A stretch of 63,632 nt of DNA, counting the filler, from Psammoneis japonica (taxonomy: Eukaryota), in the NCBI GenBank assembly GCA_008632985.1. It is 7 parts of 6 records of this genome, joined end to end, with 100 filler letters (N's around TTAATTAATTAA, not from the genome) between each part and the next. Parts side by side here need not be neighbours in the genome. Positions count along the whole stretch, not along the records: positions 29,159 to 54,064 come from QPGO01000038.1; 6 more parts are not named here. One strand, written 5' to 3'. Shown here one piece after another: positions 24,839 to 49,060 of the stretch. Positions within the stretch are counted from its first letter, which is position 1, and each line of letters starts with the position of its first letter. A program made the position numbers and the translations under genes. The notes beneath the pieces are model-generated. The model was given only the letters and a program-made list of their open reading frames with translations. It did not search any database and was not told the DNA's origin.

Positions 24839-24938
24839 NNNNNNNNNNNNNNNNNNNNNNNNNNNNNNNNNNNNNNNNNNNNTTAATTAATTAANNNNNN
24901 NNNNNNNNNNNNNNNNNNNNNNNNNNNNNNNNNNNNNN
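24839..24938. other. Artificial contig-joining spacer
   Basis: N44-TTAATTAATTAA-N44. Confidence 0.95.
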
Positions 24939-29058: not shown

Positions 29059-29158
29059 NNNNNNNNNNNNNNNNNNNNNNNNNNNNNNNNNNNNNNNNNN
29101 NNTTAATTAATTAANNNNNNNNNNNNNNNNNNNNNNNNNNNNNNNNNNNNNNNNNNNN
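29059..29158. other. Artificial contig-joining spacer
   Basis: N44-TTAATTAATTAA-N44. Confidence 0.95.
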
Positions 29159-29519
29159 GCATGCCACGGGACCAACTGTGGACATGATGCGGAAGATTGC
29201 CGTCAGCTCAAGCACCACGTGAAACGTGTCAAGACTGGACATTCCAACAACGGAGGCGGCAAGCCCAACACAAAACCTCGGAATGAGGAAGATGTTAATG
29301 CTCTCATCGGATCGAAGGTCGAGGAGCACTTTGCCAATGCTCAGAAAAAGCGCAAGGCCCGCGAGGAGGAGCTTGATCACTTCCGCGACCTCAACCCAAG
29401 TGGTTCCGAAGACTCGGACGCCAGAGAAGGGGGCCGACACGATGCAGGCAGTTTTAATGCATTGGATGAATGTGTGAATGAACAACTGAACTACCATCGT
29501 ACACGTGTTGCAGGCCAAT

Positions 29520-30401
29520 CCCGCAAACGAGTTAAAAAGACTCATCTTGCTCCAATCTTGTTTGCAGCTGTGAATGCTGAACATGGCAAGGGCAAGACTC
29601 AAACCATTAAGACACTGCCAGACAGTGGCGCCAGCAGTGCTCCACTCGACAGTCGACACTGCAAACGTCTGCGAAGCCATTCAACGGCTGAGACAAACTG
29701 GCTACGGTGGCAGGCTCGTCTGGCACGTCTGACGACTGCACCGTTAAATTTCGGTTGCCAGAGTTGTCCGAAGCTGCAGAACTTGAGCATGCCGTCCACG
29801 CACACAACAGAAAGCAGGGCAAGTGCGATGTGATTGTTGGACGTGACATTCTGGAGACACAAGGCATTGACGTTGTCTTCTCCAAACAGATGACAGAGTG
29901 GCCATTGGTCAATGGAGAAGTGCCAATGAGGCACGTAGATGCTGCGGTGGAAACCTCCTTCTATCTTCAAGATCCAGAAGCCTTGTCTTCGGAAACCGAC
30001 CGGATTTCGCGCATTTTAGACGCTGAGCACGCGCCGGCCTGCCTCGAGGACATGACGCGAGGGGCAATGGGACTTTCCACAGTTCAACAAAACAACCTTT
30101 TGGCACTGTTGAAATGCCATGAGTCCTTGTTTGATGGGACATCAGGAGAATGGAAGGGAGAGCCCTGCCATGTCCAACTCAAGGAGGGTGTGGAACCATG
30201 CCATGCTCGTCCGCATGAAGTGCCTCGTGCGCACAAAGCTGCGCTGCGTAAAGAAGTAGAACACCTGGCACGTGTCGGTGTTCTCAAATGCGTCAACCGA
30301 TCCCAATGGGCAGCTCCATCATTTGTCATGCCGAAGAAAGATTTAACGGCACGCTTTGTTGATGATTTCAGAGAGCTGAACAAACGGATCAAGCGATTGC
30401 C
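29520..30401 (+). pseudogene. Gypsy pol 5' part: protease and RT N-terminus
   Basis: LPDSGAS, CDVIVGRDIL and SQWAAPSFVMPKKDLTARFVDDFRELNKRIKRLP. It ends at the Copia TSD. Confidence 0.85.
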
Positions 30402-30582
30402 GAATGAATGCCGATGCAGCCGCGTGGGGCAATGACAGCACCTTGAGCCCAAGAGCAGCAGCGACAAACCAAAGAGAACCCTGTGTCGATTAGAACGTGT
30501 GAGATTGTGGGAAAGAACAAACCACCAGATCGTGCGCGTCAGCCCCGGACCAGGGACTGACCGCTCCACCCAGATTTACTCG
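30402..30582 (-). repeat. Copia 3' LTR
   Basis: Direct repeat of 36358-36538. On the minus strand it is preceded by the G-rich PPT-like CGCGGGGAC. Ends are uncertain by about 1 bp. Confidence 0.9.
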
Positions 30583-30699
30583 GTCCCCGCGAAACGGCAG
30601 TGACAATGCCGATTCGTCTAAACCTGGAACATCCTCTCACAGAGAGGCAAACACAAAACCCAAATTCAGGCCACCAGCAATGCTGGCTTGGGAGGCCGA

Positions 30700-32674
30700 A
30701 ACAAGTGGGCGCGAGCCGCAGGTGTCTGGCCTTGGTGTCGGGGCTCTGCCAAAAGATGCAAGAGCAAAGTTTCCAATGCCGCTCTCCCGTCGTCACCTTC
30801 ACAAACAAATCCCGCCAAATTTGTGTCCGTGTCCTCCTTCCAACGCGAATGACGCCAGCCGCAACCGCTTCACGAACCAAATGACAGTTGACAGCATCAT
30901 GCTTCTTGTGCAACACAGATTCCGGAACACTGACGTTCTTCACCACGCCGCGGTTGTCGCAAAATGCATTGGCAGGGCCTTCAATCGGCACTCCAAACAT
31001 GCAAAGTTTGTGACGCAAAGCAACAATCAACTCCTTGCAAATGCGCATTGCAACCAATTCGCTGCCAAACGTCGCTGACTCCACTGTGTTCTGCCGCTTG
31101 CTAAACCAAATGATCGGAGCATTGTTCACGAATGTCAAAATCCCGCTGTGCGATCTGCGAGCAACAACGTTTCCCGCATGGTTGGCGTCAACAAATGCAG
31201 ACACATTTGCCGGGTTGCCACGGGGCTTGGGCATCCATGGCGGCAACTCCTCCTCAACGTCCCCATAAAACTCCGTCCAGTCCGCAGTGGAATTGAAAAC
31301 AGATTCGTCAATCACAGGCATCTTCGGGTCAAAACCAATGCGACCGACATTCAAATGCTTCTTCATGTGCGCGAACACATGGTGCAACGCTTCGAGGTGC
31401 CCTTTCCTTGGGTTGGCTTGACACTGAGAGAGAATAGAAACTTCATGCAAGATGTCGACACGGCCCAACTCGATCGCCCAACGACAAATGCCAATCAACT
31501 GCAAACACCTGTCCACCAAATCGGGTCCCAACTCGTCCGTCACGTCTAATTCCGGCTTGTGCTTAGAAGGCAGTGGGTCCCTCACATTGTTCTTCAAGAC
31601 TGCTCCGTCACCGTCCTCTTCTAACAGCCCTTCCACCGTCTTGATCGCCGACTTGACACACGACTTCGGCGAGCTTGCCCAAATGGTGCACCCATCTTTG
31701 GTCTGAACCTTCTCGACGTCGGCTCCAAGGCACAACGATGTCTCTCCTTCACTCCCAGGTTTGACAGCAAATGATTCACCCATGCTCTCGACAATGGATT
31801 TTCCTTGATGAGAAATGATTAGAATGTCGTCAACATGAACCAAAAGCATTTCATAATGCTCGTGCCCATCGTCACGAGTCGCCGCACGAACACAAACGTT
31901 GGGATCCGCCTTCGTTGATTCAAAACCCATGTTCCGTAAAACGGATGCCAATGCGGACCTCCAAGAGTGTCCAGAGCTCTTCAAACCGCACAGCGCTCGA
32001 GTCACAACTAGAACCTTGCCTTGGTGCTCTCCACATTCCCTGCCACCTTCGAACCAGATCTTCTCCGCACACGGGGCATTCAAGTGCGCGTTCTCCAGGT
32101 CGACAGCCGCAATGTCCACTCCATTCAATGCTGCCAGCAGGAATCCTAACCGCACGCCATCCCTCGAAACAACACTTGAGCATGTGATCGATGATGGTGT
32201 TTCCGCAGCATGACCTCCTGCAACAAATCTGGCCTTCCCAGTGAAATCCATCTTTGCGTCGAATGCCAAATGGCACCTGATCTCCTGACAACCACGCAAA
32301 GTTGCACTCTTGCCTTCCCGGACGACTTGAGGGGTTTCAGCTTCATGTTCGCGCCACGCTGCCTTGACCTTGTTCATCTCCTTGTCAATTGCGCGAGCCC
32401 AACAGTCCGTCCCCGTTTCCTGGTCAATCTTCAAAGCATCTTCCGTAGACTTGGGTAAACGTGTGCCGAACTTGTGGGCAGTGCGCCAATGTTTCTTCTT
32501 AGCCTTCGAGATGATGCGATTCCGCTTGCCTGAAACATGCGTGGCCCACCAAGCAAACGCCGGTTCTTCGGTTGACCTGTTCGCTGCAGCATGCTCAGCA
32601 AGCTCAATCGGGCTAGACTCCTTCAGATCCTTGAGTTTCACCCACGACAAGCTGCCGTCCTTCCATGCGACCAA
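30700..32674 (-). pseudogene. Copia reverse transcriptase and RNase H
   Basis: KARFVAGGH, DLENAHLNA, RALCGLK, LLVHVDDILII, FVDANHAG, SKRQNTVESATFGSE and FCDNRGV. Only 2 Tyr in the 711-aa ORF. Confidence 0.92.
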
Positions 32675-33156
32675 TGGGTTCCATCCTTTCGTAGTGTCTT
32701 CTTATGTTCGTTCCCGTCAGCTGTCTGAACTGTTCCTTCCTGGATCGGTGTAGCTTCGCCGGTCTTTTCGTGATCCTGTGTCTCCTGCAAAATAGAGTGC
32801 TGGTTGCCTTGCTGTCAACTTGAGCAAACACATTCTCCGCGATCACATTGGCAGCACGCTTGTCTCTGGCACCGTCTGTGCATTCAATCTCACATTCGCG
32901 GGTGTCAAACAATGGATTCTGATGCCGGGTTCCAATCAGTTGCCCATCCTGACCTCGTGCCCGCTTGACTGCGACTCCTCGCCGTTCAGCGTTAGTCCCA
33001 ACATCAAACACGAGTTCCATTCCAAGACATTGATCAATTGCCTGTTCGTCGTCGTCCTCGGGTCGTTCTCCTGGCAATGACATGTCCCCGCATTCCTCAT
33101 CGGTTGGTGTCACACCGCCTTCACATTCCATGCCGGGGTTGCCGTCGATCGCCAAA

Positions 33157-34020
33157 TCATCCAATGCAAATGCTGGTGCCCTTCGTCGCCTTGTAAAACG
33201 AAACTGGTGTCATCCAACCGTGCCCGAGTTGTTCGTCAAACTTGTCGACTTTCACACGAGTGTCCGGCTGCACCATGTCGGCCTGCGTTACATGCTCGAC
33301 CAAAGTCTTCGAAACCATCTTCCCGGATTCCGTGACAATCCAATGACACATGTCCGATCCGACCTTGTGAGACACACCAAGCCATCGTCCAAGCCTCCTC
33401 GGGTCATCTGTTACATTCGGCTTGTCGTGTCCATCCCACCACCAGACCAGATCACAGAAACCGAAGTCCAAACACTCGCCTGTTTTGGGTGTCTGACCAG
33501 TTGCCTCTTCACACCCAGTCCGTTTGTCGCGGCCTCTTGCCATGCGAGACACAAGTTCCGATTCACAAACTAGACCAAAATCCCACAATCGTTTCGGCAC
33601 CTTCTTCCTCGTCATCCGCAGGCGCCAACACTTAGCCAAGAACCCGATCTCTCTTTCTGCTGCGTGATTCTGATTCTTACGACCTTGTTCCGTTGTCCTG
33701 AGTTGGATCCTCATTCGACGTGTGTGTTTCACAAACTCAGTGCTTCGTCCTGTGAACTCTCCAGCACCATCCGACATGAGACACTCCGGCACTCCCACAT
33801 CGTCTGTAAAGTCAACGAGAGACAAACCTGCCTCCGACCTTGCGGTCATTGGCACAACCTTTACGAACTTGCCCTGAGCACAAACATTGGCACAAGTGTG
33901 CCGAGCAAAGACTTCACCTTGGACATTAACGTGTCCACAAACCATGTCCCTTTTGATCTTTTCCGATGCAGGTCCAAGTGATCCACCCTGACTCTCCTTG
34001 ACATTGGTTGGGTCACCGTC
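33157..34020 (-). pseudogene. Copia integrase
   Basis: WFVDT, DVGVPECLMSDGAGEFTG, QNHAAEREIG, VPKRLWDFGL and LGRWLGVSHKVGSDMC. Confidence 0.85.
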
Positions 34021-34444
34021 CNNNNNNNNNNNNNNNNNNNNNNNNNNNNNNNNNNNNNNNNNNNNNNNNNNNNNNNNNNNNNNNNNNNNNNNNNNNNNNN
34101 NNNNNNNNNNNNNNNNNNNNNNNNNNNNNNNNNNNNNNNNNNNNNNNNNNNNNNNNNNNNNNNNNNNNNNNNNNNNNNNNNNNNNNNNNNNNNNNNNNNN
34201 NNNNNNNNNNNNNNNNNNNNNNNNNNNNNNNNNNNGACTGGAGACAATCGAGTGAGTTCAGCTTCAACCTCGCCCCATTGGACTGCTTGAGACTTGGCCC
34301 TGTCGCTCTTCATTTCTGAAATCTGTTCCTGTCTCATGCCAGATGTCATCGAACGGACAGCGCGCATCTCAGATTGCTCCCTTGCACGCTGTGGTGAACC
34401 CACATCGACTTCCGTTGGACTCCACACGTCTCCTGTTGGCAGCA

Positions 34445-36120
34445 TCACTGGTGAGTTCTTCTCCTCCCAATCCGTGGAACACGAGACTTGAAAAATGCAA
34501 TTGTCCCCATGGAATTGAAAGGCATGAAAGCTTCATCAGCTTCGATTCCAAACCCATTTCGAGTGTCGCAAGGGTTGTCGTGTGCGGGCACATTGTGCGC
34601 TCGCAACTGATTGGGGTTCAACAATGAATGCTGCACGTCAGTTCCAAACCACAGCATTTGGTCTCCAACCAGCAAGCACTCGCGAGTCGTTTCCGGATCC
34701 GTCCATGCTGTGCAACAACGCGCCACAGGAATCTGTTTAACTGGCTCATGCGAATCTAGAAACGGGTGCACTTCACAGACTTCGTTCGTCAATTCCATGA
34801 GTTTCCAGTTAGCGCCAGCACAACAAGTGTCCGCATGAGTGTCACATTCGTTCCTTGCCATGAAGCCGGGTGTCGTTAAGTTCGTCATCGCGGTGGTGGT
34901 CGTTGACCTTGTCACACGTTTCGAAGTCACAGCAACGCGCCTTTTCGTTGCCTTCTCTTGCAAATGAAACATTGGGTGGGGTTTGGTTAACAACATGATG
35001 AGCAACATGAATGCAAATGATGTGTGTGCCAAATGCGCCAACGCTCCCGTAGTTGAAACCACCCCGATCAGTCAAACATGACCTTGACAGGCCCCTCGAC
35101 CGAAAGCGCGCCCATTCCTGCCACCACGATCACGGTCAGCTCCGCGACCGCGGCCACCGTTTTCACCTTGCGCTTGATCTTGCTGCCCTTGACCTTGACG
35201 GTCTTGAACCTGAGCTTCGGCTGCTTGCCTGTTGCCTCCGTCGCGTCCGCCTCTTCCTGCAGGGTTTCCTCGACCACCGCGTCCGTGCATCCTTTCACGA
35301 GCTTGAAAAACACAATTGAGACCTCCGTTAAAGCGCAATCTGTCCCATTCCTGGTCGGCAAATGTCCTCGTAGGATCCGACACATCGACTCCATCAATCA
35401 CAGTTGTGCGATCACCGCCCCTTCCTTGATGTCCTCCGCGTCCTCCACCACGGCCAAATCCACCGCCACGCCCACGACCGCCGCGATGGAAACCTCGGCC
35501 ACCACCGCCACCTCGGCTGATCTGAGAAATCTTGCGCTTCGCATGATGCCAGGCTTCCAACTGAGCACCTGCATGCAAACGAGAGACTTCGGATGAGAAA
35601 CAAGCACACGCCCCCGCGAAGTCACGAGGGCACTGGTTGCCAATGACGGCCGTAGCTGCCACAAGACGGGCATCCTCTGATTTGATGCCCTTCTGCAATG
35701 TTTCAACCTTCTGCCGAGCAGATGTGCTTTCATCTGGAACCTTGTCCAAAGTGGCAAAGGCACTGGTGAGTTTCTCCTTGAATTTCTCAAACGCAAGTGC
35801 ACCTTCCTTTTTGTAGAACTGGTCAACAACACCACAAACCTGCAATGCCGCGTCCACGTCAGCCGCCGCGGCCAAAGCCGCAAGTGCCACTGCTGGTGCC
35901 GCTGCCATCCTGTGACAAGAGAAACAGAGGCAACAACCCGCACAATGGGTCGCAATTTGGTGTGAGTGCGCATGGCACAGGAGGCCACACCGACCGGTGC
36001 TGTGACAACGGGTTCACGCAGCCAACTGACTTTGGGGTGATCAATCCCGTGTCGTTTCCATCGTGAGCACACGCTCGGGCATGCTGCCCAATGCCGCAGT
36101 CGCTCCACACCCGTTAACAA
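34445..36120 (-). pseudogene. Copia gag (RGG-rich C-terminus) and aspartic protease
   Basis: FEKFKEKLTSAFATL...KVETLQKGI, RGG repeats, DGVDVSDPTRTF, and protease ECDTHADTCCAGANW...SLLNPNQLR. Confidence 0.8.
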
Positions 36121-36342
36121 CATGGAGATGGTGACCATTTTGCGAGCATTTTCCGTTGCAAGCTGTTTCCTTTGGTCGTCATACGCGACACAGAGCACAC
36201 GCTGCACGCGACAACCCCCTTTCGACGCTGCGCGTGCGAATCAGTGCATTTTCTACAGCTGCTCGTTCCATGCACACAATCACAACAATCAACCGTTTGC
36301 AACGAGTTGTTTCCTTGTCCGTTTCGTTCAGCTTTTCATCAA

Positions 36343-36356
36343 TGGCTCTGATGAAG
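36343..36356 (-). other. Probable primer-binding site (initiator tRNA-Met type)
   Basis: The minus strand reads CTTCATCAGAGCCA next to the 5' LTR. The canonical iMet PBS is TGGTATCAGAGCCA; here TAT appears as CAT and the first three bases mismatch. Confidence 0.5.
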
Positions 36357-36357
36357 C

Positions 36358-36538
36358 AAACAAATGCCGATGCAGCCGCGTGGGGCAATGACAGCACCTT
36401 GAGCCTGAGAGCAGCAGTGACAAACCAAAGAGAACCCTGTGTCGATTAGATCGTGCAAGATTGTGGGAAAGAACAAACCACCAGATCGTGCGCGTCAGCC
36501 CCGGACCAGGGACTGACCGCTCCACCCAGATTCACTCG
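36358..36538 (-). repeat. Copia 5' LTR
   Basis: Direct repeat of 30402-30582. Confidence 0.9.
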
Positions 36539-36543
36539 TTGCC

Positions 36544-38824
36544 TCATCCGATTCCTCATGTCCAAGATGTGCCACTTGGGCTCAAAGGCTTTGTGTGGGC
36601 TGCATTGCTGGATTTAAACATGGGCTGTCATCACATCCGATTGGATGCTGACAGCAAGAAGCTCTGTGCGCTCATCTTCCCGTGGGGCAAGCATGAGATG
36701 CAGGCATTGCTCATGGGATTGTGCAACTCGCCAGACATTTTCCAAGAACGCATGTCAGGCTTGTTTGAAGATCTGTCGTTTGTTCGAACGCACTTAGATG
36801 ACCTTCTCGTTGTGACGAAAGGCACCCATGAAGATCACCTCAACAAACTTGAAGAAGTTTTGTTGAGGGTCCAGAAAGCAGGACTAAAAGTTAACGCAAC
36901 TAAATCTCACTTCTGTCAAACCCAATTAGAATGCTTGGGTTGTCTGGCTGACAGAGACGGAGTGCGACCAACACCTGATAAAGTCGACGCCATCAAGCGA
37001 ATCGCGACCCCAACCAACAAACGCGACCTGCGTTCATTTGTTGGCATGGTGAACTGCTGTCGCGACACGTGGATTAGACGTTCTGAAGTCTTGGCTCCGC
37101 CAACACGACTCGCAAGCGAGACTGTTAAGTGGGAGTGGACGTCCGTTGAAAACGAGGCATTCGAAACCGTCAAACGGGCAATGTCGGATGATGTTTTGTT
37201 GTCACATCCTGATTTTAACAAACCCTTTGAGATGCATGCCGATGCCTCTAAATGTCAATTGGGAGCAGTCATGTCCCAAGATGACAAACCTGTCGCCTTT
37301 TGCAGCAGAAAGCTCAACAGTGCGCAATTAAATTGTGCAACAACGGAGAGAGAATTGCTCGCCATTGTGAAGACGTTGAAAGAATTTCGAACGATTCTCC
37401 TTGGTCATCGTGTGATCACACACACTGATCATAAAAATCTTGCGCACAAAGTGTTCAATGCCGAGCGCGTCATGCGCTGGCGGTTGACATGCGAAGAATG
37501 CGGTCCCGAATTGCGCCATGTTAAGGGTGCCCACAACCCAGTCGCTGACGCTCTTAGTCGCCTTCGACTGGCACCCAGCTTGCCTTCCGAGGCCAATCCG
37601 GATGTAAAAGACACTCCATCGAGTCGTCCTTTGCATGAAGCCTTTAATGCAGACGCTCAAGATGAGCCATCTCTGCCTGTTAGCTTCAAGCGCATTCAAA
37701 AAGCACAACAAAAGGACAAGCGCCTGCTCTCACGAGCCAAGGACTCGTCCGACTGCTCCATTCGCGCGCATCGTGGGGAAGGGTCATCACGACAGTCAAT
37801 CTGTCATAAGGACAAAATCGCAGTGCCGCAGTCATTGCAGGTTCCGCTAACTGAATGGTGCCACGAGACACTGTGTCATCCAGGTGAGACACGTGCGGAA
37901 ATGTCCATTGCCCAGCACTTCTGTTGGCCTGGCATGAGGTCTGCGGTGCATTCTACGTGCGTTGAGTGCGATCGATGCCAGAAGACAAAACGCCGAACGC
38001 AGCATTGTGGGAAGCTGCCAGAAAAGGTCGCAGAGATAATTCCATGGGAGACTCCATGCACAGATGTGATGGGGCCACATAAAATTCAAAGACACGGAAA
38101 GGACACCTTGCAATTGTGGGCAGTCACAATGATTGACCCAGCAACCGGGTGGTTCGAGATTGAAGAAGTGTCTGCGAAATGCGCAGACATCGCAGCAAAC
38201 GTCGTGGAACAAACGTGGCCATGCAGACATCCGTGGCCAACCCAGGTGGTTTATGACCGTGGGACAGAATTTATGGCAGAATTCAGCCAGATGATTAAAA
38301 ATGACTGTGGGATTTTGAAGAAACCCACAAGTGAACGGAATCCACAGGCGAATGCCACAGTGGAACGTGTGCGCCAGACACTTGGCAACATGGTGCGTTC
38401 CTTTTCAGCACAGGACATGGAACTGGACGAAGATGACCCATGGAGTGGCATCCTCTCCGCAGTGGCCTTCGCCATTGGAGCTGCGGCACACACGACCACG
38501 CGTGCAAGTCCCATGCAATTGGTCTTTGGACGCGATGCGGTTTCATCTGTTGCCCATCGTGCCAAGTGGAAGCACATAGAAACCAGAAAGCAGAAGCTCA
38601 TCCACTTAAACAACAAGCGTGAAAATCAGAAACGCAAGGAGTGTCAACATGCCGCAGGGCAATTGGTGCTTGTCAAGCAGGAACAATCCTCTAAATGCGG
38701 TTCTAACAGCCATGCAGGACCCGCCAGTGTTGTCCGTGTGTGTGACAATGGCACGTTGTGCACCCAGAACGGAGCACTGACAGATGCGCACAATCTGCGG
38801 CAGATTGCACCCTGTCACCAGTGA
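36544..38824 (+). pseudogene. Gypsy pol 3' part: RT, RNase H and integrase
   Basis: LDLNMGCHHI, HLDDLLV, DASKCQLGAVMSQ, ERELLAIV, HTDHKNL, H-x4-H zinc-finger, YDRGTEF and NPQANATVER. One Tyr in 787 aa. Confidence 0.93.
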
Positions 38825-39289
38825 GACATTCTGTCACTTGACGGCCCTGATCATGGGGGAGTGTGCAGCATGCCTCGCTGCTGGACAACACGGTGAGACC
38901 GTGCATGAGCCTCTTGCACGTGGCAACGTGGTGTTGTTAACACGCACCTGGGAAGCACGACCACAGGAGGGCGTGGCTCTAGATCTCAGGCAATTCCAGA
39001 AGGATGCCAAGAGAGCATCCGTGTGAAGCACACCAGCCCGTCGTCTGGCCCACGATGGCAGCGTGATTCCACATGATGACATCACTCGTGCATGGCGCGT
39101 GATGGCGTGATTCGCACGATCCATGATGCGAACGCACGATCGATTTGATGCGATCCAAACGCGAACGAATGGGGATTTGGCAAGATTCCCCATTCGCACG
39201 ATCCCATTTTCTCTGCTCTAAACTAGCTCACAATTTTCACAACGACAAAGTCGCAACACATCTTCTTTTTCAGCGCCTGGTGCATGCAT

Positions 39290-39640
39290 GGGGCACGAGT
39301 GCATGGCTCTCTGCACTCAGTGAAATCCTGCTCAACGGCATGGAAAGAACACTTTGGCAGCTCAAGCTCATGCCCAGCTGCGCCCAGCAAATCATGCCAG
39401 AGTTGATTGTTGGGCCATGTCTTCAATTTAGACAACAAAGTGGCGGAAGACAAAGAATTGCTCACAGCTGGAGGTGTGCATTGATGGAGGTGCCAGACAA
39501 GCAACAAGGCAGCAAGGTTCAATTGGCTGGTGTCATGCTCCCCGACAGTGTTCCCCTCATGCCCCAAGTCCACGGACAGGGGAGGGACAGCAGGAGGTGC
39601 ACCTCTGGCCTGTCCAAATTGATGTTGACTCCATGTCCAA
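39290..39640 (-). mobile_element. Short non-LTR (LINE-like) RT fragment; second copy at about 52120-52465
   Basis: QLWHDLLGAAGHELELPKCSFH resembles the W..LL...GG.L...KC motif of LINE RTs. Confidence 0.45.
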
Positions 39641-39849
39641 AGTGCTCTGCTGCTGCATCCTCTGGAGCATCTGCTGCCATCCAATGTTTGAATGTCTTCG
39701 GATTGTCTTGAGGACCAGCTGGCACTTGAATGGTCTTGATGCTTGAGTCTGCTTTCTCCTTGAAAGCATCAATCTTTCGGAACACTCTCTTTGTCTCTTC
39801 TGCTTCTGCGCACTGCAGCTTGCAGCAGAGACCGCTGTTGGACGAAAAC

Positions 39850-40300
39850 ATGCCAAGATCTGGCAGCCGGCTTGCGTGGCTGTTCTTCAGTCTTCCAGCC
39901 TTCCATGCTTGCTTTTGCGTGTCCAGCCAATGTCCAAGTCTTTCTCCATTTTCAGGCTGTTTGAGAAGAGAAAACACAGTTTCCCAATGCTCAGCCAGAA
40001 TGTCCCACTTGGCTCTGGCCTTCTCCAGCAATTCCTGTTGAGAAGCATCAAGTTTCCTTTTCCTTGTGGCATCCCGTTGGTTGCTTGACCATTTTCCAAG
40101 GTTCTCCCAACCCTTGTTGTGGCACCTTGGCATGTTGCAATGTCCCTCCCGTTTCGTGAATTGCTTGAGAAGAGAGGGCATTGTGCCCCATTGATTTTCC
40201 CACAAGAGCCACTTGGCACCAGCCTCCTCAAGTTTTTCTTCTTTTTCAATGTTGAGCATGCTGAGCTTGTGTTTTGTGGCCACTGGTTGTCCAACCAAAT
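39850..40300 (-). pseudogene. Degenerate helicase-associated (HA) domain repeats
   Basis: W..M..LL.QF..REGHCNMP....LGKW..NQR.....LD..QQELLE and LGHWLDTQKQ. Confidence 0.65.
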
Positions 40301-40479
40301 TCCAAGAGCAAAGCCATCCTCAGCACATTCATTGGGAAGATCAGGCTGCAAGCAAAACATGGCGCCAATCTCAGCAACACAGCATTGTGGAAATGTGCTC
40401 TTTGTGCCAGAGGCATGTGTTTGTGAACAACATGGTTCACTGGCAGTGCTGCCAACAGATGCTCTCTATTTTCTTTTTT

Positions 40480-41717
40480 GCATGTTTGTTTTCCTTGAAA
40501 TGACATGCTTGTTTTCCTTGAAAAAACGTGCTTGTTTTCCTTGAAAGAACATGTTTGTTTTCCTTGAAACAACACGTTTGTTTTTGTCAAAACAATGTGT
40601 TTGTTTTTGTTGAAATGAAGTGTTTGTTTTCCTTAAAAAGACATGTTTGTTTTCCCTGAAACGACATGTTTGTTTTCCTTGAAACGACATGTTTGTTTTC
40701 CTTGAAAAGACATGTCTGTTTTCTGCAAAATGACATGTTTGTTTTCTTGAAAAGACATGTTTGTTTTTCTCAAAAAAACATGTTTGGTTTCCTTGAAACA
40801 ACATGTTTGTCTTCGTTGAAACAACATGTTTGTTTTCCTTGAAATGATGTGTTGGTTTTCCCTGAAACGACATGTTTGTTTTTGTTGAAACGACTTGTTT
40901 GTTTTCCTTGAAATGACGTGTTTGTTTTCCTTGAAACGACATGTTTGTTTTCCTTGAAAGAACTTGCATGTTTTCTTTCCTTGAAACAACATGTTTGTTC
41001 TCTTTGAAAAGACATGTTTGTTTTCTTTGAAAAGACATGTTTGTTTTCCTTGAAAAGACATGTTTGTTTTTCTTGAAAAGACATGTTTGTTTTTCTTGAA
41101 AATGAGTGAATGCTGTTTGTTTTCCTCAAAAGGACATGTTTGTTTTCCTTGAAAAGACACCTTTGTTTTCCTTGAAAAGACATGTTTGTTTTCAAGACAT
41201 GTTTTTTTCCTTGAAAACACGTGCATGTTTTCTTGGAAACAACACGTTTGTTTTCCTTGAAACAACATGTTTGTTTTCCTTGAAACAACATGTTTGTTTT
41301 CCTTGAAACGACATGTTTGTTTTCCTTGAAACGACATGTTTGTTTTCCTTGAAACAACACATTTGTTTTCCTTGAAACGACATGATTGTTTTCTTTGAAA
41401 CGACATGTTTGTTTTCCTTGAAATGCACGCTTGTTTTCCTTGAAATGACATGTTTGTTTTCCTTGAAATGACATGTTTTTTTTTTTAAACGACATGTTTG
41501 TTTTCCTTTAAACGACATGTTTGTTTTCCTTGAAAAGACACGTTTGTTTTTCTTGAAACAACATGTTTGTTTTCCTTGAAATGAAGTGTTTGTTTTCCTT
41601 GAAAAGACATGTTTGTTTTCCTTGAAACGGCGTGTTTGTTTTCCTTGAAACAACACGTTTGTTTTCCTTGAAAAGACATGTCTGTTTTCCTTAAAATGAC
41701 ACGTTTGTTTTCCTTGC
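40480..41717. repeat. 23-bp minisatellite array (consensus ACATGTTTGTTTTCCTTGAAACG), about 50 units
   Basis: Visible tandem units. The spurious ORFs have a 23-aa period, equal to 3 units. Confidence 0.95.
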
Positions 41718-42189
41718 AACAACTGGCATGGAAACTCTGGCGGCAAGCACCAACCTGAAAAGGACAAGCCCAGGATCTGGGCATGCCATTGCCCCATTGA
41801 AGAGTGGAGGGCTCCTGACGGTCCTGAGCAAAAGCAAGTTGAGAAGCTCCATGAGGCCAAGAAAGCTGGGAAAAAATGCAAAGCAGCAGCTGCATCCTTG
41901 GAGGCTGAGTCGGTCGATGCTGACACTCACGCTGTGAAAAGGACGGCTGTTGCCAAGCCTTAACCTGCTGATGAACAAAAGGACTCCAAAGAGTCAGATG
42001 AGCCACCTGCTGTCTGCACAGGCATGCAGTTTGGATGCAGCGCCCACAAGAAACCTCAGAAGGAGGAACGAACAGTTGTGCCAGCACCAAAAGGCATGGA
42101 GCCAACTGTTGCTGCACCTGCTGGCACTGTGCATTTATCCAGGTGATTCCCAAAGAACACGTGTGTCTCTTTGTCATCTGCTGGACATT

Positions 42190-42700
42190 CACATGGTGAA
42201 GCAACCAATGGCTTGGACTCGCACGCTGATGCGTGCGCTGTTGGGTCCAAATTTGTCATGTGCTCTGATGTTGACTGCGCTGTTGCAGTGCATCCTTGCT
42301 CCGAAGAGTGTGCGCCAATGAGGAGTGCTCTCATTTGTGCGGCTGCTGCCATGTGGGTTGATCCAACCAATGGATGGCCACACCTGCTGCCAGTCCATGA
42401 GGCTGTGTTTTTTGGGGACAGAATGACTGACACCCTGCTGTGCCCCAAACAACTGCGAGCGAGTGAGCTGACTGTCCACAACACCCCTCGCCAGTTTCGT
42501 CCCAACAGCACACACTCTGTTGTTTTCCCTGACTCGAAAATCAGGATGCCTTTGTGCACGCAAGGTGTTGCTGTGGTCTTTGACTCACATGAGCCAACTC
42601 AGGAGGATCTGGAGAACCTCCCCCGGCTGGAGCTCACATCACCCCTTGGATGGGAACCTTCTGCTGATGCCGCAGCACAAAAGGAGGAAGAGCGCGCATG
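42190..42700 (+). mobile_element. Copia protease-region fragment; partial copy at about 45240-45455
   Basis: GLDSHADACAVG...HEAVFFGDRMTDTLLCPKQLR...TPRQF. Confidence 0.75.
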
Positions 42701-42964
42701 TGCCAGTGTGCGCAAAGGACCAGCAAAGTCTGATGGACAGTTGACAATGGATGGGTTCCAGCCCCAGGTGGGACTTTTTGTGACATTTGCCCCGTGGAAT
42801 TCTGCGTGCGAGCTCTCTGCAGTTCGCACTCTGGTCAATGGACACATTTGTCTTCAACACAAAACAAATGGCCAAGTTTGCAGTGCATGTGTCTCTGTTC
42901 GCACTCGAAGTTTTGGACAACACGGCTGCCCTGCGCCATTCTTAAGACACTCGAGAATGGCGCA

Positions 42965-43850
42965 GAAGAAAAAAACATCAAAAGTTGCTGAATGGATCGC
43001 CTGACATTTGCACCATAAAATGATGCAAAATTTCACCAAAATCACGTAGAAATCTGCGTGCACGACATGCGACGTGATTCAAAAAACTGTCAATGTCACA
43101 ATTCAGCAGTGCGAGGTCCCACCCAGACCTGGAATGCGTCAATGATGAGTGCGACCAGGTGTGTCACTTCAACTCATTTGTGCCAGACGTCCCACAAAAA
43201 TGAGAGCATCATTGTGGATGCAAATGATGGCGATTCTCTGCATGCTGCTTGGTTGCTCAGGTGAGTGTCTCTCACAACCACATTGGGGGAGACGGGCCAC
43301 ATGACTGGCACAGTCTGTGCGTCCACCTGGATTGTGCTGAGTGGAGATGGGTGCATGCACTGTCGACCTTGAGTTGTGCATCGACTGTCACACCCAAGAT
43401 GCTCTCCAAGAGGTGGGACATTGGCCTGATGGCCGCCAAGAACACCCTCCGAGTGACAACCCAGGCAGGGGCCAGCAACGTCAAGATCATGGGTTGCGTG
43501 AGCTCTGGGTGCACGCTCAAGGACTAAAGTGTCTGCGAGCTGGAGGAGCAATTGGGCGCCCAGATCAGAAAGTGCCAGTTGTCTGACTTGGAAAGCAAGG
43601 CACGCTGGGCCATGTCCTCTGACCTTTGTGTCAAGTGGGAATTGACTGATGTTGAGCTGGAGCTGAAGAAAACTGAAAGGCGTCTTCCGACAAAGGCGTC
43701 AACCCCCTTGAGACCGCGGCACAGGCCTGAGCTGGACAGCTTGCCTGAGTTGAGTGCCAAAATGGCCAACTGTCATCAAGGCTTTGTTGGTGTGCTCCGA
43801 GTTGTTTGTTTTTCTTGAAAAGACATGTTTGTTTTTGTCAAAAAGACGCG
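42965..43850 (+). mobile_element. Composite repeat containing fused Copia pre-integrase and RT fragments; second copy at about 52470-53370
   Basis: VTPKMLSKRWDIGLMAAKNTLRVTTQ is joined directly to WAMSSDLCVK...HRPELDSLPEL...HQGFVGVLR. Confidence 0.7.
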
Positions 43851-44433
43851 CTTGTTTTTCTTGAAACGACATGTTTGTTTTCCTTGAAACGACATGTTTG
43901 TTTTCCTTGAAAAGACATGTTTGTTTTCCTTGAAACAACACGTTTGTTTCACATGTTTGTTTTTGTTGAAACGACATGTTTGTTTTCCTTGAAACGACAT
44001 GTTGTTTTTCTTGAAACGACGTGTTTGTTTTCCTTGAAAAGACATGTTTGTTTTTTTTTGAAACGACATGTTTGTTTTCCTTGAAAGGACATGTTTGTTT
44101 TCCTTGAAATGACATGTTTGTTTTCCTTGAAAGAACTTGCATGTTTTCTTTCCTTGAAACAACATGTTTGTTTTTGTCAAGACAACATGTTTGTTTTCCT
44201 TGAAATGACACGCTTGTTTTCCTTGAAAAGACATGTTTGTTTTTCTTGAAAAGACATGTTTGTTTTCACTGAAATGACATGTTTGTTTTCCTTGAAAAGA
44301 CACATCTGTTTTTCTTGAAATGACATGTTTGTTTTTCTCAAAAACAAGATGTTTGTTCAACATGTTTGTTTTCTTTGAAAAAACATGTTTGTTTTCCATG
44401 AAAAGACATGTTTGTTTTCCTTGAAAAGACATG
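43802..44433. repeat. 23-bp minisatellite array
   Basis: Same unit as 40480-41717. Confidence 0.93.
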
Positions 44434-44434
44434 T

Positions 44435-44763
44435 GGGCAGGCGGTGGGAGCCACCACCCACAAGAGCCGTGCCTGTGCACAGATTGCTGCCGCGAAGTGC
44501 ACCAGATGGGGTCATTTTGCTTTTGACCAGTGCGTGCAATGCCATCAGAAGGCTTGCGATGACTTGTCTGAGCTCGACGAGCCAGCGGCCGAGACCAAGA
44601 AGGTCTCTGACTTTCTCAAGGGTGTTTTCGACCCTGGGTTGGAGACTGGTGAGAGTGCAGTGGATGGAAATCTGATGAAGCCAGCAGACTTCAAAGCATG
44701 CCAGCAGTGTGCAAAGATTCTGGTGGAGAATGCCAAGAACCACAACGCTGATGCTTGCATGGC
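44435..44763 (+). mobile_element. Copia gag fragment
   Basis: FAFDQCVQCHQKACDDLSELDEPAAETKKVSDFLKGVFDP. Confidence 0.6.
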
Positions 44764-44994
44764 TCAGTGAGCCGAGCATGCACATTTCTCATTTGACCAT
44801 CGCAGGTCCATCTTGTGGGGGGTGTCAAAATGTCGTGCTTCAATGTGCGAATTTTCAATTTCACACAACCTCAACAACTGCACACACAATGTGACGATTG
44901 ATCCTCGAGACGCATCAAAGCACAACGTTTTGGCACCCCCCACAAGACAGACCTGTGATGGTCAAATGAGAAATGTGCATGTTCGGCTCACTGA
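44764..44994. mobile_element. MITE-like foldback element, 231 bp with ~84-bp terminal inverted repeats
   Basis: 44764-44847 (TCAGTGAGCCGAGCATGCACATTTCTCATTTGACCATC...) is the reverse complement of 44911-44994, with a few transitions. Confidence 0.85.
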
Positions 44995-45108
44995 AGGGAC
45001 CCCAAAGACACCACCATTTGCACTCAATGATCGATTTTGACCAAATGCACACTTTTTGCCACACCCGACTTTTGCCAATTTTGCCTGGTCAATCCGTGGA
45101 TGCGGTGT

Positions 45109-45808
45109 TAAAAAGACATGTTTGTTTTCCTTGAAACAACATGTTTGTTTTCCTTGAAACAACACGTTTGTTTCACATGTTTGTTTTCCTTGAAACGACA
45201 TGTTTGTTTTTCTTGAAACGACGTGTTTGTTTTCAAGGCCTCGATGTTGCAGTGCATCCTTGCTCTGAATGTCCCCATTTGTGTGGATGCTGCCATGTGG
45301 GTCAATCCAGCCAGTGGACAGCCACACCTGCTGCCAGTCCACTGGGCTTTTTTTTTCAGAGACACAATGACTGACACCCTGCTGTGCCCCAGCCAACTGC
45401 AAGCAAGTGAACCGACTGTCCACGACACCCCTCGCAAGTTTGATCCCAACAGCGCACACTCTGGACGTCCACCAGGATTGTGCTGAGTGGAAACGGGTGC
45501 ATGCGCTGTCGACCTTGAGTCGTGCATCAACTGTCACAACCGAGATGCTCTCCAAGAGGTGGAATGTTTGTTTCCTTGAAATGACACGTTTGTTTTCCTT
45601 GAAAAGACACGTTTGTTTTCCTTGAAATGACATGTTTGTTTTCCTTGAAAAGACACATTTTTTTTCTTTGAAACGACATGTTTTTTTTTTGAGTGACATG
45701 TTTGTTTTCCTTGAAACAACACGTTGGCTTTCCTCGAAATGACACGTTTGTTTTCCTTGAAATGACTTTTTTTTGAAACGACGTGTTTGTTTTTCTTGAA
45801 ACAACATG
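45109..45808. repeat. Two short 23-bp minisatellite blocks (45109-45235, 45563-45808) flanking Copia fragments
   Basis: Same unit as 40480-41717. Confidence 0.85.
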
Positions 45809-46359
45809 AGTTTGCCTTGAATTCTGCACAAGAATGCACTGACGGATGCAAACCAATGCGATTCCATGTGCAGGAGAACAGCATCTGCACCCCACAAGAA
45901 GCTCGCGCCTGTCCCCAAGTTCAGTTGGATTCATGAGACTGCAATGTGCAGCAATTTGTTTGGTTGATCCTCTCCCAGATGAAGATGTGTGACACCTCTG
46001 GAATGCTTGAACAGCACCCGCAACTGAGCAACTCCTTGTTTGATGTCTGGCGGTCAAAATCCTCCACCGCCAAGAGCTTGTGGGCCACACAAGATGAGTT
46101 GTTTTGTGTTTCAGCTGCACCCACATTTGACAATGTGAGCCGCACTGCTTTCTGTCAAGCGGCAAGCAAGTGCTTGGGGAGAAAGTTCTTGTCAGGGTGA
46201 GCACAGGTCATTGAGGAGAGATGACATGCATGGCAGCATCTCCATGTTTCTGCATGACAAAGCGAACAAGATCAAAGGAAAAGAGCTGCAGCATCGCTCT
46301 TGTGTCGGAGTTTCTTCAGCTGAGTCTTCTGGGCACCAATTGGAGCCAAGCAGTGGTTG

Positions 46360-47400
46360 TTGCAGGGGGGCACTGAAGGGACACAGCCCACTGGCAGGGC
46401 ACTGATCAAACAAGATTTGCGGCGCAAGTGTTTGGCGCTGGGGGCACCTTTGAGGCTTTGTGCCCTCAGCCATGTTGTGCAATTCTAGATTTTGTGCCCT
46501 TGACCTTTTTGTGCCCTTGGCTGTTTTGCACCCTTTCCTTTTTTTGTGCCCTTGAGCACTTTGCCCCATCTCGTGGTTTTGTGCCCTTGGCCATTTTGCG
46601 CCCTTTGTGACTTTGTGCCCTTGGCCATTTTGTGCCTTTTTTGGCTTTGGGCCCTCAGCCGCATTTGGCGCCCCTCCTGATTTTGTGCCTTCAGCAATTT
46701 GCAGCATGCATGCAGACAAAAGGTCATTTTTGTCACGCCCTTTGTGACATTTAAAGGCTGCAACACATCGCCGTGATGCATTGGCTCTTGTCAGTGGCTG
46801 TGTGTTGCACTCCTCCCCATGCATCACGCGTCCATGCGGCTCTTTACCAACGTGTGCTGACACTGCACGGTTTTGGCGGAACAGTGTGGGTGCGTGCGAA
46901 GGAACACACAGAACTGCACAGAGTTTTGCGCTTTCGACAGTGATCAACGTTGCTGCAGACAACTCCCACTCGGGTTTCGAACCCCTGGCCTCCTGCCCAG
47001 TGGTTGCGATGTGCCACTCCGCTGTGAATTCACAATGCAGCATGCATGCAGACAAAAGGTTGTTTTTGTCACGCCCTTTGTGACATTTAAAGGCTGCAAC
47101 ACGTCGCCGTGATACATTGACTCTTGTCAGTGGCTGCACATTGCAAATTTTTGGCCATTGTGGTTTTGTGCCCTTTGCCACCTTGGGCCCTTTCTGATTT
47201 TTTGCCCTTGGCAGCTTTGTGCCCTCAGCCACCATTTTGCACCCTCAGCCATTTTGTGACCTCAGCAACTTTGTGCCCCTGCCTGGTTTGTGCTCTTTGT
47301 GATTTGGCGCCCTCAACAGACATTTTTTGTCCTTTTTGATTTTGTGCCCTTGGCCATTTTGCTGGTCACGACAGAGCTGCAGAACAACAAGAACCTGCCC
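46360..47400. repeat. Degenerate TTTGTGCCCTT-core repeat blocks, homologous to 50880-51860
   Basis: TTT(T)G(T/C)GCCCT core roughly every 17-20 bp. An internal duplicated insert occupies 46700-47140. Confidence 0.8.
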
Positions 47401-47419
47401 GATGAAGAACGCGGGGCAA

Positions 47420-49060
47420 AGGAGAGAAAGTGCGCGAGATGCCTGAAGCACTTCATGGCAGGGAACTCCAAGAATGGAGATGCAGAAGGGAGCACACCCA
47501 GGAAATGCAAGAGGGAGGATTTTTGCAGGAAGACTGTGGCAGAGTGTGGCAGGAAAGCGGGGGAGGGGGGCAGTGGGTTGGGGGATGAGGAAAGCCACGT
47601 GGGGGGTTGGACCCAGACACATGAGCTGGAGCCAACACCTGTTTGGCAGAGAATGTGTGAAAAGTGGCAGTCACGTTTGTTGCAAATGACGTTGCAGGCA
47701 CAATCCAAATTGAGCGACTGCGCTCCACGGTGCCAGCCGGAGAGCAACCGGGGAAGGGCACAACACAAGCGGCACTTTGGGAAGCCAGTCAACCAATCTG
47801 TTGTCAGTCAGTTGTCGAATGTGTTTGAGTGGGCGCGCCGGAGTTTTTGGCCCGCTCGCTTTCTACGTGGCCTGGTGCAACCCAAATCTGTGTGGGCTCA
47901 GCACGCTTTGCCCTGCAGAACAGTTTTTGGGAGTGTTCTCTGGCTCGCGGCTCAAAATGGCACACAAAACGGCATGGACAATGGCGTTTTGCCAAGTTGA
48001 AAAATGTGATTGTCTCTGAGGTCGGAACCTGGATGCTCTCAACAGAGTTCGGTTTGTTGTGTCATCTTGTGCGAGATGAGCTCAAGAGCGCCCAGGCTCA
48101 CATGGGCAGATTGTGGCGAAAATTCTTGCTGAAGGTTCGCATTGACAATGTCGCTTCTGTTGCTTCACAACCAGCCTCATGCACTGCCATTTGTGCTGTG
48201 TGTTTTGTCGAGGCTTCATGTGTTTGCAGCCGTTCAATTTGCGTGCAATTTCTCTTTCTGCGCTGTTCTTTTGTTCTGTGGGGTCTCTGTTGTCATGAGG
48301 CACCCCAGAGACACTTTTTCTTGTCTAGAATGTCATCTCTAAAGTGCAGTGGCCACGGCAATTCAGTGACGAAGCCAAGTCACAGACACAGCATCAGGAA
48401 GAGTTCAAGACAAACACGGCAACTTGGAGCCATGACGTCTTGAGCTGGTTGAGCTCTCAAGAGCTCAGACACATCATCGCGCAGCTTTGACAACATTTCT
48501 CCCCCACTGTCCATGGTGATGCTGAGTTTGATTTGGCAGACCAGCGCATCATGGTGACTCCAAAGGCAAAGATTGCTTCTTTTGGCTGTGGGGCTGTTTG
48601 CAACCTGGGAACATGTGGCTTGTTTGCATGAAAGTGCGCGAGATGCCTGGAGCACTTCACGACAGGGAACTCCAAGAACGGAGATGCGGGAGGGAGTGCA
48701 CCCAGGAAATGCAAGAGGGAGGCTTTTTGCAAGAAGATTGTGGCAGAGCGTGGCAGGAAAGTGGAGGAGGGAGGCAGTGGGTTGGGGGATGAGGAAAGCC
48801 ACATGGCGGGTTGCACTGAGACACACGAGCTGGGGCCAAAACCTGTTTGGCGGACAACGTGTGAAAAGCAGCAGCCACCTTTGTTGCAAATGACGTTGCA
48901 GACACAATCTAAATTGAGTGACTGCATTCCATGGCACCAGCTGGAGAGCAGCTGGGGAAGGGCACAACACAAGCGGCGCTTTGGGAAACCAGTCAACCGA
49001 TCTGTTGTCAGTCAGTTGTTGAATGTGTTTGAGTGGGTCCGCCGGAGTTTTTGGCCCGTT
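47420..49060 (+). repeat. Local dispersed duplication (about 47420-47860 vs 48630-49060; 47860-48280 vs 50260-50660)
   Basis: Shared text such as GGGGATGAGGAAAGCCAC...GTCAGTCAGTTGT. Confidence 0.75.

Follow-up and report, generated by a model that had tools for sequence, protein, structure and literature searches.

TpA-restricted, strand-independent loss of tyrosine codons in a Copia retrotransposon and the surrounding repeats of Psammoneis japonica

Introduction

Dinucleotide-specific hypermutation directed against mobile DNA is, to our knowledge, a textbook subject only in the case of the repeat-induced point mutation (RIP) of fungi and of the animal deaminases that act on RNA or complementary DNA (cDNA); hyperedited retroelements are known in animals. 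The conversion of A to G at TpA on chromosomal DNA has a single earlier report, a 2026 preprint on the chlorarachniophyte Bigelowiella natans (Mettrop et al., bioRxiv 10.64898/2026.01.13.699255), whose main text describes de novo TpA → TpG/CpA changes occurring at ~1000-fold the background rate in the integrated viral DNA of mutation-accumulation lines. According to the same text, the targets are integrated giant-virus and virophage DNA, reverse transcriptase and DDE domains are over-represented among the genes with low TpA, and an adenine deaminase, still unproven, is proposed as the agent. The present analysis concerns a Copia-type retrotransposon of Psammoneis japonica (assembly GCA_008632985.1) found within a stretch of 63,632 nucleotides, filler included, which was analysed as a whole and is hereinafter called "the window". 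The reading that we favor, with a probability of roughly 80%, is that this dead Copia copy was inactivated in place, after its integration, by a local TpA hypermutation acting at the DNA level. Such a case belongs to a kind that is barely known, insofar as a literature search for TpA hypermutation in diatoms yielded no report, the B. natans preprint, which does not mention diatoms in its abstract, Results or Discussion, being the only text found to describe the signature; a paper on diatom DNA methyltransferases (PMC9998398), in part of its text, mentions RIP, there as background only.

The likeness to B. natans is close in that only A → G or T → C changes at TpA are involved, the product being TpG or CpA according to which strand is changed, with both outcomes occurring, and in that local tracts of foreign DNA are concerned, segments poor in TpA and rich in CpA + TpG being clustered. 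On the other hand, the organism studied here is a diatom-like stramenopile, the affected DNA comprises long terminal repeat (LTR) retrotransposons, a Helitron and satellites, and the events that were seen de novo in the chlorarachniophyte are here deduced from end states. Furthermore, the depletion given in the main text of the preprint is partial (Rho 0.45 in a region of nucleocytoplasmic large DNA virus origin), whereas here it approaches saturation (observed/expected ratio, o/e, 0.00-0.2), and no rule on flanks, TpA itself excepted, emerged from a term search of that main text, although tables S2-S12 of the preprint may hold flank data, whereas here RTAY (R, purine; Y, pyrimidine) is preferred and TTAA is spared. 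An explicit strand test, a Helitron case, environmental copies and a flank rule are what is added here.

With the RIP of ascomycete fungi the process shares post-integration dinucleotide transitions that are made at the DNA level on both strands and kill transposons; however, RIP converts C to T mostly at CpA, thereby raising TpA, and creates stop codons, whereas here A is converted to G at TpA, CpA/TpG and GC rise, and neither TAA nor TAG can be made. ADAR and APOBEC3 would have in common with it the clustered, deaminase-driven transitions that inactivate retroelements, but they act on RNA or nascent cDNA and leave a one-strand signature that is fixed at integration; this signature was rejected here because there is no strand bias, the LTRs are discordant and a Helitron is affected. 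Finally, the decay of 5-methylcytosine at CpG also yields TG and CA, marks silenced repeats and overlies the older block of the window, but it starts from CG, whereas the Copia element has lost TpA (o/e 0.16) and not CpG (0.96).

The Copia element and the loss of its tyrosines

The Copia copy is carried on the minus strand and is inserted in a Gypsy-type element lying on the plus strand. Among the features of the Ty1/copia elements, it possesses an RVT_2-type reverse transcriptase, a pair of 181-bp LTRs and a 5-bp target duplication (GGCAA), and its parts are the following, PBS standing for primer-binding site.

30397..30401, minus strand: target-site duplication GGCAA on the 3′ side, the same 5-mer being present on both flanks
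30402..30582, minus strand: 3′ LTR, 181 bp, pairing with 36358-36538
30542..32701, minus strand: reverse transcriptase/RNase H frame, 720 codons (Pfam RVT_2, homologues)
32613..33209, minus strand: linker piece of pol in another frame (frameshifted), aligning to long homologues
33160..34020, minus strand: integrase-like region of pol, a weakly supported label (similarity to a homologue, upstream of its RVT_2)
34022..34235: assembly gap of 214 N inside the element
34448-35071 and 35075-36013, minus strand: two open frames upstream of pol, presumed to be gag/protease by position only
36345..36353, minus strand: PBS-like CATCAGAGC, separated from the 5′ LTR by 4 nt (sequence reading)
36358..36538, minus strand: 5′ LTR, 181 bp
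36539..36543, minus strand: target-site duplication GGCAA on the 5′ side (same 5-mer on both flanks)

A preceding, sequence-only reading of this DNA had named six replacements of tyrosine by cysteine or histidine in the Copia pol, and all six are found at their places and in columns where the homologues have Tyr. Thus, YVDD has become HVDD (His codon CAT at 31837-31835), ALYGLK has become ALCGLK (Cys codon TGC at 31990-31988) and NAYLNA has become NAHLNA (His codon CAC at 32086-32084), other Tyr columns have Cys codons at 32182 (TGC) and 30886 (TGT), and LRHKL is found at residue 564 of the open reading frame (ORF). When the frame was aligned with 60 of the 120 homologues listed, the 16 columns in which Tyr is conserved at ≥80% were seen to contain two Tyr, nine His and five Cys, all the conserved Phe (12/12), Trp (13/13), His (9/9) and Cys (3/3) being kept. 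A second alignment, made with 47 homologues of ≥900 amino acids and the three frameshifted ORF pieces, extended the count to 21 columns, with two Tyr, nine His, eight Cys, one Phe and one Arg, the latter encoded by a CGT at 32858 in which both bases of the doublet are changed; Tyr is replaced by Cys at 33092 and 32894 in the linker piece and, in the integrase-like region, by Cys at 33456 and by His at 33345. The conserved columns other than Tyr are kept in 321 of 372 cases (Fisher p ~1e-13 for the contrast with Tyr), and the change to Cys or His that concerns 17 of the 21 Tyr columns is found in only two of 32 Arg columns.

The composition of the DNA tells the same story. Between positions 30700 and 34020 there are 29 TA, as against 185.9 ± 10.3 (minimum 157) in 2000 composition shuffles and ~151 predicted on the basis of 77 intact relatives of environmental origin, and the o/e values of the same segment are 1.45 for TG, 1.36 for CA, 0.96 for CG and 0.16 for TpA. 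Among the 70 differences from the conserved consensus, 29 can be derived by TA → TG/CA, four by CpG decay and none by RIP-type CA/TG → TA changes; for some of the others, the probable cause is that the short frameshifted pieces are misaligned. The intact relatives do not have these His and Cys residues: the median retention of Tyr is 94% in 120 Copia and 93% in 120 Gypsy homologues, Tyr being kept by 119 of the 120 listed Copia homologues (the exception, database protein P0016, is dealt with below) and by all 120 listed Gypsy homologues.

As to the identity of the element, the reverse transcriptase frame matches RVT_2 (PF07727) with E=1.6e-13 and 51.2 bits, above the cut-off of 31.6, and has 659 homologues, the best being 68% identical; the best homologues of both Copia and Gypsy are metagenome or diatom proteins, those with a name coming from Fragilaria crotonensis and Thalassiosira exigua. 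This frame, which is shifted near codon 620, extends into the LTR because its TAA and TAG stops have been lost, and a single TGA (35074-35072) divides the two frames upstream of pol. The integrase-like ORF at 33160-34020 is 43% identical (E=3e-62) to residues 137-363 of database protein P0046, i.e., upstream of the RVT_2 match of that protein; rve/rve_3 gave weak, sub-threshold matches in two of the four homologues scanned, and no Pfam match was obtained, even at E≤1, for 33160-34020, 34448-35071 and 35075-36013. According to the sequence-only reading the PBS may also have been hit, in which case the ancestral form of the PBS-like sequence would be TATCAGAGC, the canonical motif; no intact copy was found for comparison. 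Neither TATCAGAGC nor its 12-nt canonical form occurs in the 80 metagenome relatives, most of whose stretches stop short of the PBS region, no tRNA gene is found within the window, and a literature search gave nothing usable on the PBS of CoDi, as groups of diatom Copia elements are reportedly called by Maumus et al. (2009).

Strand symmetry and independence of element class

The sequence-only reading had further proposed that the Copia is antisense to the surrounding Gypsy, that both carry a mixture of TG and CA outcomes and that the process is independent of the transcribed strand and of the superfamily of the transposable element (TE). These proposals hold, the last one in an extended form, since a Helitron-type fragment is also affected. 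The features concerned, besides the Copia itself, are three.

29159..30396, plus strand: 5′ part of the Gypsy-type element, truncated at the scaffold end and split by the Copia insertion (homologue alignment)
36544..39290, plus strand: continuation of the Gypsy (Pfam RVT_1, RT_RNaseH_2, Integrase_H2C2, rve)
60252..61757, plus strand: fragment of a Helitron-type PIF1 helicase, located on another scaffold (Pfam PIF1)

The Gypsy keeps none of its 27 conserved Tyr (2 of 21 are kept in the Copia), 14 having become Cys, 11 His and two Phe; 21 of these columns lie in 36544-39290, and in the 5′ part, whose ORF pieces 29159-29830 and 29692-30432 were aligned with 60 Gypsy homologues, the Tyr columns at 29824, 30028, 30166 and 30199 contain Cys or His and the TA o/e is ~0.14-0.3. 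Other conserved residues are kept in 437 of 599 cases. The differences from the conserved consensus number 189, of which 60 are derived by TA → TG/CA, 12 by CpG decay and none by RIP-type changes, so that fungal RIP was rejected for both elements (0/70 and 0/189), TpA being moreover depleted. As in the Copia, the lack of stops lengthens the frames, and for this reason the Gypsy pol frame (36392-38821) begins within the Copia LTR. The degree of mutation is the same in the Gypsy DNA flanking the Copia insertion on either side.

The Helitron assignment is based on the full-length homologues of ORF 60252-61757, in which Helitron_like_N accompanies PIF1. In the alignment with 40 of the 150 homologues listed, taken from the top 52 by match length, none of the five conserved Tyr is kept (three Cys, two His), as opposed to a retention of 120 of 135 for the other conserved residues; a single Tyr is present in 502 residues, as against a mean of 3.3% in the homologues. 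Taken by element, TAY has become CAY or TGY in 17 of 21 Copia, 25 of 27 Gypsy and five of five Helitron columns; the fact that a Helitron and satellites are affected means that reverse transcription is not required.

The test of asymmetry with respect to the coding strand, made on the pooled Copia and Gypsy outcomes, gave 22 Cys (A → G) and 20 His (T → C), with a binomial p=0.88, and counting on the plus strand of the window gave 23 TG and 19 CA (p=0.64), i.e., no asymmetry of transcription or replication strand is seen in these 42 pooled outcomes. When ordered along the DNA, the same 42 outcomes form 23 runs, the expectation being 21.8 ± 3.2, without clustering; in the absence of runs, neighbouring sites take their strand independently.

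Within the window the loss of TpA is found in local tracts of mobile DNA, host genes being normal. A two-state segmentation gives a TA o/e of 0.08 over 29113-57125 and of 0.23 over 59096-62100, as against 0.52-0.70 in the gene-bearing segments, and the satellite arrays and degenerate sequence of the repeat block contain 0-3 TA per 500 bp, as against 21-28 outside. On the plus strand of the scaffold at 29159-54064, 601 TGA are accompanied by only 60 TAA and 38 TAG, and long open frames are present in all six frames, both being due to the fact that the loss of TA cannot create TAA or TAG.

Environmental copies

The signature is not peculiar to the window copy or to the assembly, as indicated by a database protein and by three metagenome loci. 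Of the 80 metagenome loci carrying relatives of the Copia, 77 keep ≥81% of their Tyr columns and have a median TA o/e of 0.69; in the other three, L020, L061 and L063 (L020:1-1590, L061:1-1344 and L063:1-1126), the TA o/e is 0.25-0.30 with normal CpG, and the Tyr kept are only 2 of 11, 1 of 5 and 0 of 5, respectively, the remainder being His or Cys. These three loci constitute one family (L061/L063 90.7%, L020/L063 81% and L020/L061 77% identical), which is a Copia family different from that of the window (68-70% DNA identity). P0016 has two Tyr, 10 His and five Cys in 18 Tyr columns and gives no Pfam match at E≤1e-5, although RVT_2 is matched by the relatives that are intact, showing that the process conceals elements from domain-based annotation.

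A distinct observation was made on three other environmental Copia loci (L050, L054 and L048), in which the CpG o/e is 0.03, 0.06 and 0.30, TG/CA are raised and TpA is lowered only moderately (o/e 0.38-0.58); they resemble cases of strong CpG decay and their signature is unlike that of the TpA loss.

Influence of the flanking bases

The dependence on the flanks was evaluated in four data sets (the Copia, the Gypsy, the three mutated environmental loci and the older block of the window) against a baseline of 77 intact environmental Copia loci amounting to 327 kb. The RTAY sites are given below as observed/expected numbers; the mixed sites (RTAR/YTAY), in which A is followed by a pyrimidine on one strand only, and the YTAR sites (TTAA, CTAA, CTAG) are given as survival ratios.

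Copia: RTAY 1/93; mixed 0.17; YTAR 0.55
Gypsy: RTAY 1/63; mixed 0.18; YTAR 1.09
Three environmental loci: RTAY 7/64; mixed 0.38; YTAR 0.80
Older block: RTAY 2/279; mixed 0.05; YTAR 0.19

The order RTAY > mixed > YTAR is solid. At mixed sites of known ancestry, it is the strand in which A is followed by a pyrimidine that has changed in 37 cases versus 17 (p=0.009), a figure composed of Tyr codons after a pyrimidine (12 versus 6), read-supported sites (6 versus 1) and the three-copy environmental family (19 versus 10). Likewise, products of the class "A then pyrimidine" are in excess by 81 in the Copia and by 76 in the environmental loci, the values of the other class being +15 and -1. A two-factor model, in which a 3′ pyrimidine accounts for ~4-fold and a purine 5′ of the T for ~1.9-fold, predicts a survival of mixed sites of 0.171, the observed value being 0.165; the division of the effect between the two flanks is provisional. 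A flank preference derived from host-gene baselines was tried and rejected as too noisy. A preference for C over T at position +1 was also set aside: a hint came from composition (the gain of TGC being 0.7-1.0 of the expected TAC), with which a hand tally of the Tyr codons disagrees.

Timing of the changes and alternative explanations

The two LTRs, identical at the time of insertion, now differ at 10 bases of the 181-bp pair, belonging to seven events: three discordant TG/CA doublets, one TA/TG, one CA/CG, one A/T transversion and one terminal T/C before G. Eleven CpG are shared and two have decayed, and double decay at one and the same CpG is expected to produce ~0.04 discordant pairs; discordant outcomes are expected at former TA sites once ~85-99% of the TpA have been converted. 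Since the discordant pairs exceed what CpG decay can provide, the TA changes in the LTRs are post-integrational, and they occurred at least two orders of magnitude faster than other substitutions.

The state of the paralogues was deduced from a public DNA run (X1) containing 36% of the words of the stretch, from which contigs were placed on 29159-34021 at ≥80% likeness. Out of 2073 such contigs 376 are at least 99% like the window copy, transitions account for 465 of the 555 differing places, and among the best-supported 40 of 558 rows 19-20 read TA where the window copy has CA or TG, i.e., other members of these families in the organism have retained TA. Indels of the other copies are found at 32694, 33179/33180 and 33224, where the window copy changes frame; the Copia copy is dead through frameshifts as well.

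One side observation concerns two scaffold copies in the window that overlap with 99.25% identity, 22302-24838 being matched by 57256-59788 in reverse-complement orientation, and that are either alleles or a redundant piece of assembly. Of the five substitutions that distinguish them, three are TA/TG (22715, 22925 and 23013) and lie ≤100 bp from the edge of a TA-poor tract, which, if the two are alleles, hints at recent or ongoing activity.

The explanation that best survives beside local hypermutation is that silent DNA decays slowly and passively in a manner that depends on context, for example through a miscoding modified adenine at TpA or a repair bias of heterochromatin, much as CpG decays by way of 5-methylcytosine. 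Residence time in methylated chromatin would account for the older block (39.3-57 kb) having lost both TpA (0.00-0.06) and CpG (0.3-0.65), the palindromic optimum RTAY would suit a modification enzyme that recognizes double-stranded DNA, and the outcomes are scattered by site, without runs. However, the young LTRs are mostly TA-changed and yet their divergence outside TA and CpG amounts to one base in 181, with a CpG o/e of 0.96, so that the decay would need to be very fast relative to that of CpG; furthermore, the many copies of the same families that keep TA in the same organism are better explained by an episodic, copy-specific action. For these reasons we consider passive decay rather improbable.

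Far less likely is an editing that precedes integration, be it an ADAR-like A-to-I conversion on the RNA of the retrotransposon or a deamination of its cDNA, for which the hyperedited retroelements of animals provide a precedent. A base preference would also speak for it, since ADAR-type editing favors a U 5′ of the edited A (10.64898/2026.01.13.699255, Discussion). Nevertheless, such editing should affect one strand, whereas Cys and His are balanced (22 versus 20), and should leave concordant LTRs, whereas three discordant doublets and one TA/TG are present in 181 bp; in addition, the Helitron, which has no RNA intermediate, and the satellites are affected, and the Gypsy is mutated equally on both sides of the Copia.

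A sequencing or assembly artefact, such as systematic miscalls at modified bases, might be suspected in a window made of joined, unplaced, repeat-rich scaffolds with gaps, the more so as the sole run containing the stretch (X1) may come from the same sample, but it is highly improbable: 376 of the 2073 contigs agree at ≥99% with the window copy and others from these families have TA, the same pattern is found in P0016, a protein of another source, as well as in the three metagenome contigs that represent a different Copia family, and the edges are sharp and confined to repeats, the host genes on the same scaffolds being normal. Lastly, selection on the elements to shed TpA/UpA, for instance through evasion of a UpA-cutting nuclease or through codon usage, hardly deserves credence, for although a slight deficit of TpA is seen everywhere (host o/e 0.5-0.7) and a functional Uma2-like gene can be TA-poor, an invariant catalytic Tyr is destroyed (YVDD → HVDD) alongside the frameshifts, non-coding LTRs and satellites are affected, and the intact relatives keep their Tyr.

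Several points weigh against the hypermutation that we favor, or at least against parts of it. No de novo event was seen here, the whole reading being drawn from end states, and the TA ancestry of the discordant LTR pairs, for want of an outgroup, is argued from rates. The run X1 may be the sample of the assembly itself and serves for the state of the paralogues, not as independent support. The flank rule depends on a baseline taken from composition: for the Copia of the window, P-minus-M is in excess by 9.97 per kb, only ~1.7 standard deviations above 73 intact loci, a balance of the 16 tetranucleotide classes was rejected as too noisy (gain/loss from 0.09 to 4), and the strand preference is not significant when taken from the Tyr codons alone (12 versus 6, p=0.24). 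The TA-normal part of the 2.5-kb scaffold pair of 99.25% identity is unmutated, so that duplication alone, which sets off RIP before meiosis, may not be the trigger, although the two copies may be alleles. None of the tract edges seen in the window could be assigned to the end of a known TE; the Copia lies wholly within mutated DNA, and the apparent edges are mostly linkers between scaffolds. Low TA alone is not diagnostic either, because the TA-poor island at 2708-3940 (o/e 0.13), situated within genic DNA, contains a Uma2-family endonuclease-like ORF (3333-4037; homologues of 44-68% identity) that keeps three of its four conserved Tyr; the island was accordingly rejected as a hypermutated tract and is probably TA-poor by codon usage.

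Proposed mechanism and significance

The sequences show the direction of the changes, their restriction to TpA, the equal and independent use of the two strands, a timing later than integration for the LTR sites, the indifference to TE class, the influence of the flanks and a copy-specific distribution in tracts. In the mechanism proposed for the local hypermutation, the A of TpA would be converted to G on either strand, giving TA → TG or TA → CA, the strands being changed independently, site by site, at a rate that depends on the flanks, with RTAY erased first and the TTAA-like sites last. The process would have struck the whole block of nested repeats (Gypsy, Copia and satellites) after integration, as well as other repeat scaffolds including that of the Helitron, leaving the normal TpA of the host genes untouched. 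Because the loss of TA cannot create TAA or TAG, the frames stay open while the TAY codons become His or Cys codons, and this loss of Tyr destroys catalytic motifs such as YVDD. The simplest candidate for the agent may be a polynucleotide adenine deaminase, TadA/ADAT-like or other, whose product, inosine, would be read as G; by analogy with what has been proposed for B. natans, such an enzyme might be aimed at repeats or at silent chromatin as a genome defence. A bolder and tentative extension, against which we still see the odds leaning, would be that diatoms possess a sequence-specific DNA adenine editor (5′-R-T-A-Y-3′) that mirrors RIP in the defence against transposons and that may be old, widespread among the stramenopiles, alveolates and rhizarians and still active; this breadth is suggested by the rhizarian signature, by the environmental Copia and by the three TA/TG among the five differences between the scaffold copies.

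The presence of a near-saturated footprint in a diatom-like genome and of the same footprint in environmental Copia copies of diatom type suggests that the process is not the curiosity of one alga. It accounts for the long, stop-free and yet dead TE frames that gene callers predict as proteins, and a TA-poor tract combined with Tyr → Cys/His replacements offers an annotation marker for inactivated elements. The preference for RTAY, the sparing of TTAA and the independence of the strands constitute a biochemical handle for the search for the enzyme, and a natural DNA adenine deaminase, if real, would be of interest for base-editing technology.

Make-up of the stretch and other features

The window contains six linkers, each consisting of 44 N, TTAATTAATTAA and 44 N, i.e., six-frame-stop joins between separate unplaced scaffolds. 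It follows that adjacency across these blocks is not real, and several apparent edges of TA-poor tracts are only linkers. The large-scale features are the following.

21990-22089, 24839-24938, 29059-29158, 54065-54164, 59789-59888 and 62056-62155: linker blocks (44 N-TTAATTAATTAA-44 N)
29159..54064: whole unplaced scaffold (QPGO01000038.1), TpA-poor throughout (hidden Markov model segmentation, o/e values, linker positions)
40481-41720, 43803-44434, 45566-45766 and 53307-54064: 23-bp satellite arrays, consensus near CATGTTTGTTTTCCTTGAAACGA, up to 54 copies, in the TpA- and CpG-poor older block

The first 21 kb (1-21 kb) carry host-type genes, identified by Pfam as those of a subtilase, a D27-like protein, a Nipped-B/cohesin loader and a RIO kinase. 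The scaffold at 29159-54064 contains nested repeats, and two parts can be distinguished in it: in the younger (29159-39290), CpG is normal, and in the older (39291-54064), as at 55.5-57 kb beyond the linker, CpG is also lost (o/e 0.3-0.65), TpA having fallen to an o/e of 0.00-0.06 over 39.3-57 kb; here CpG decay, which is much slower, is superimposed on the loss of TpA.

Some minor observations can be added. A 2-kb island at 57126-59095, without a Pfam-recognizable ORF, has a normal TpA (o/e 0.70), with TA-poor DNA on each side on the same scaffold (54165-57125 and 59096-59788). An LTR-like pair, 39296-39637 and 52124-52466, is 95.6% identical and displays five discordant TG/CA doublets in a 373-column alignment that includes non-homologous flanks, three of them being, by eye, clearly inside the repeat. 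A duplicated 1.5-kb segment (42958-44431 and 52463-53931) is 89.9% identical, and further periodic repeats of 17-204 bp are found at 51010-51725. Finally, a minus-strand ORF at 39522-40319, inside the fully TpA-depleted block, contains two Helicase-associated repeats (HA, PF03457).

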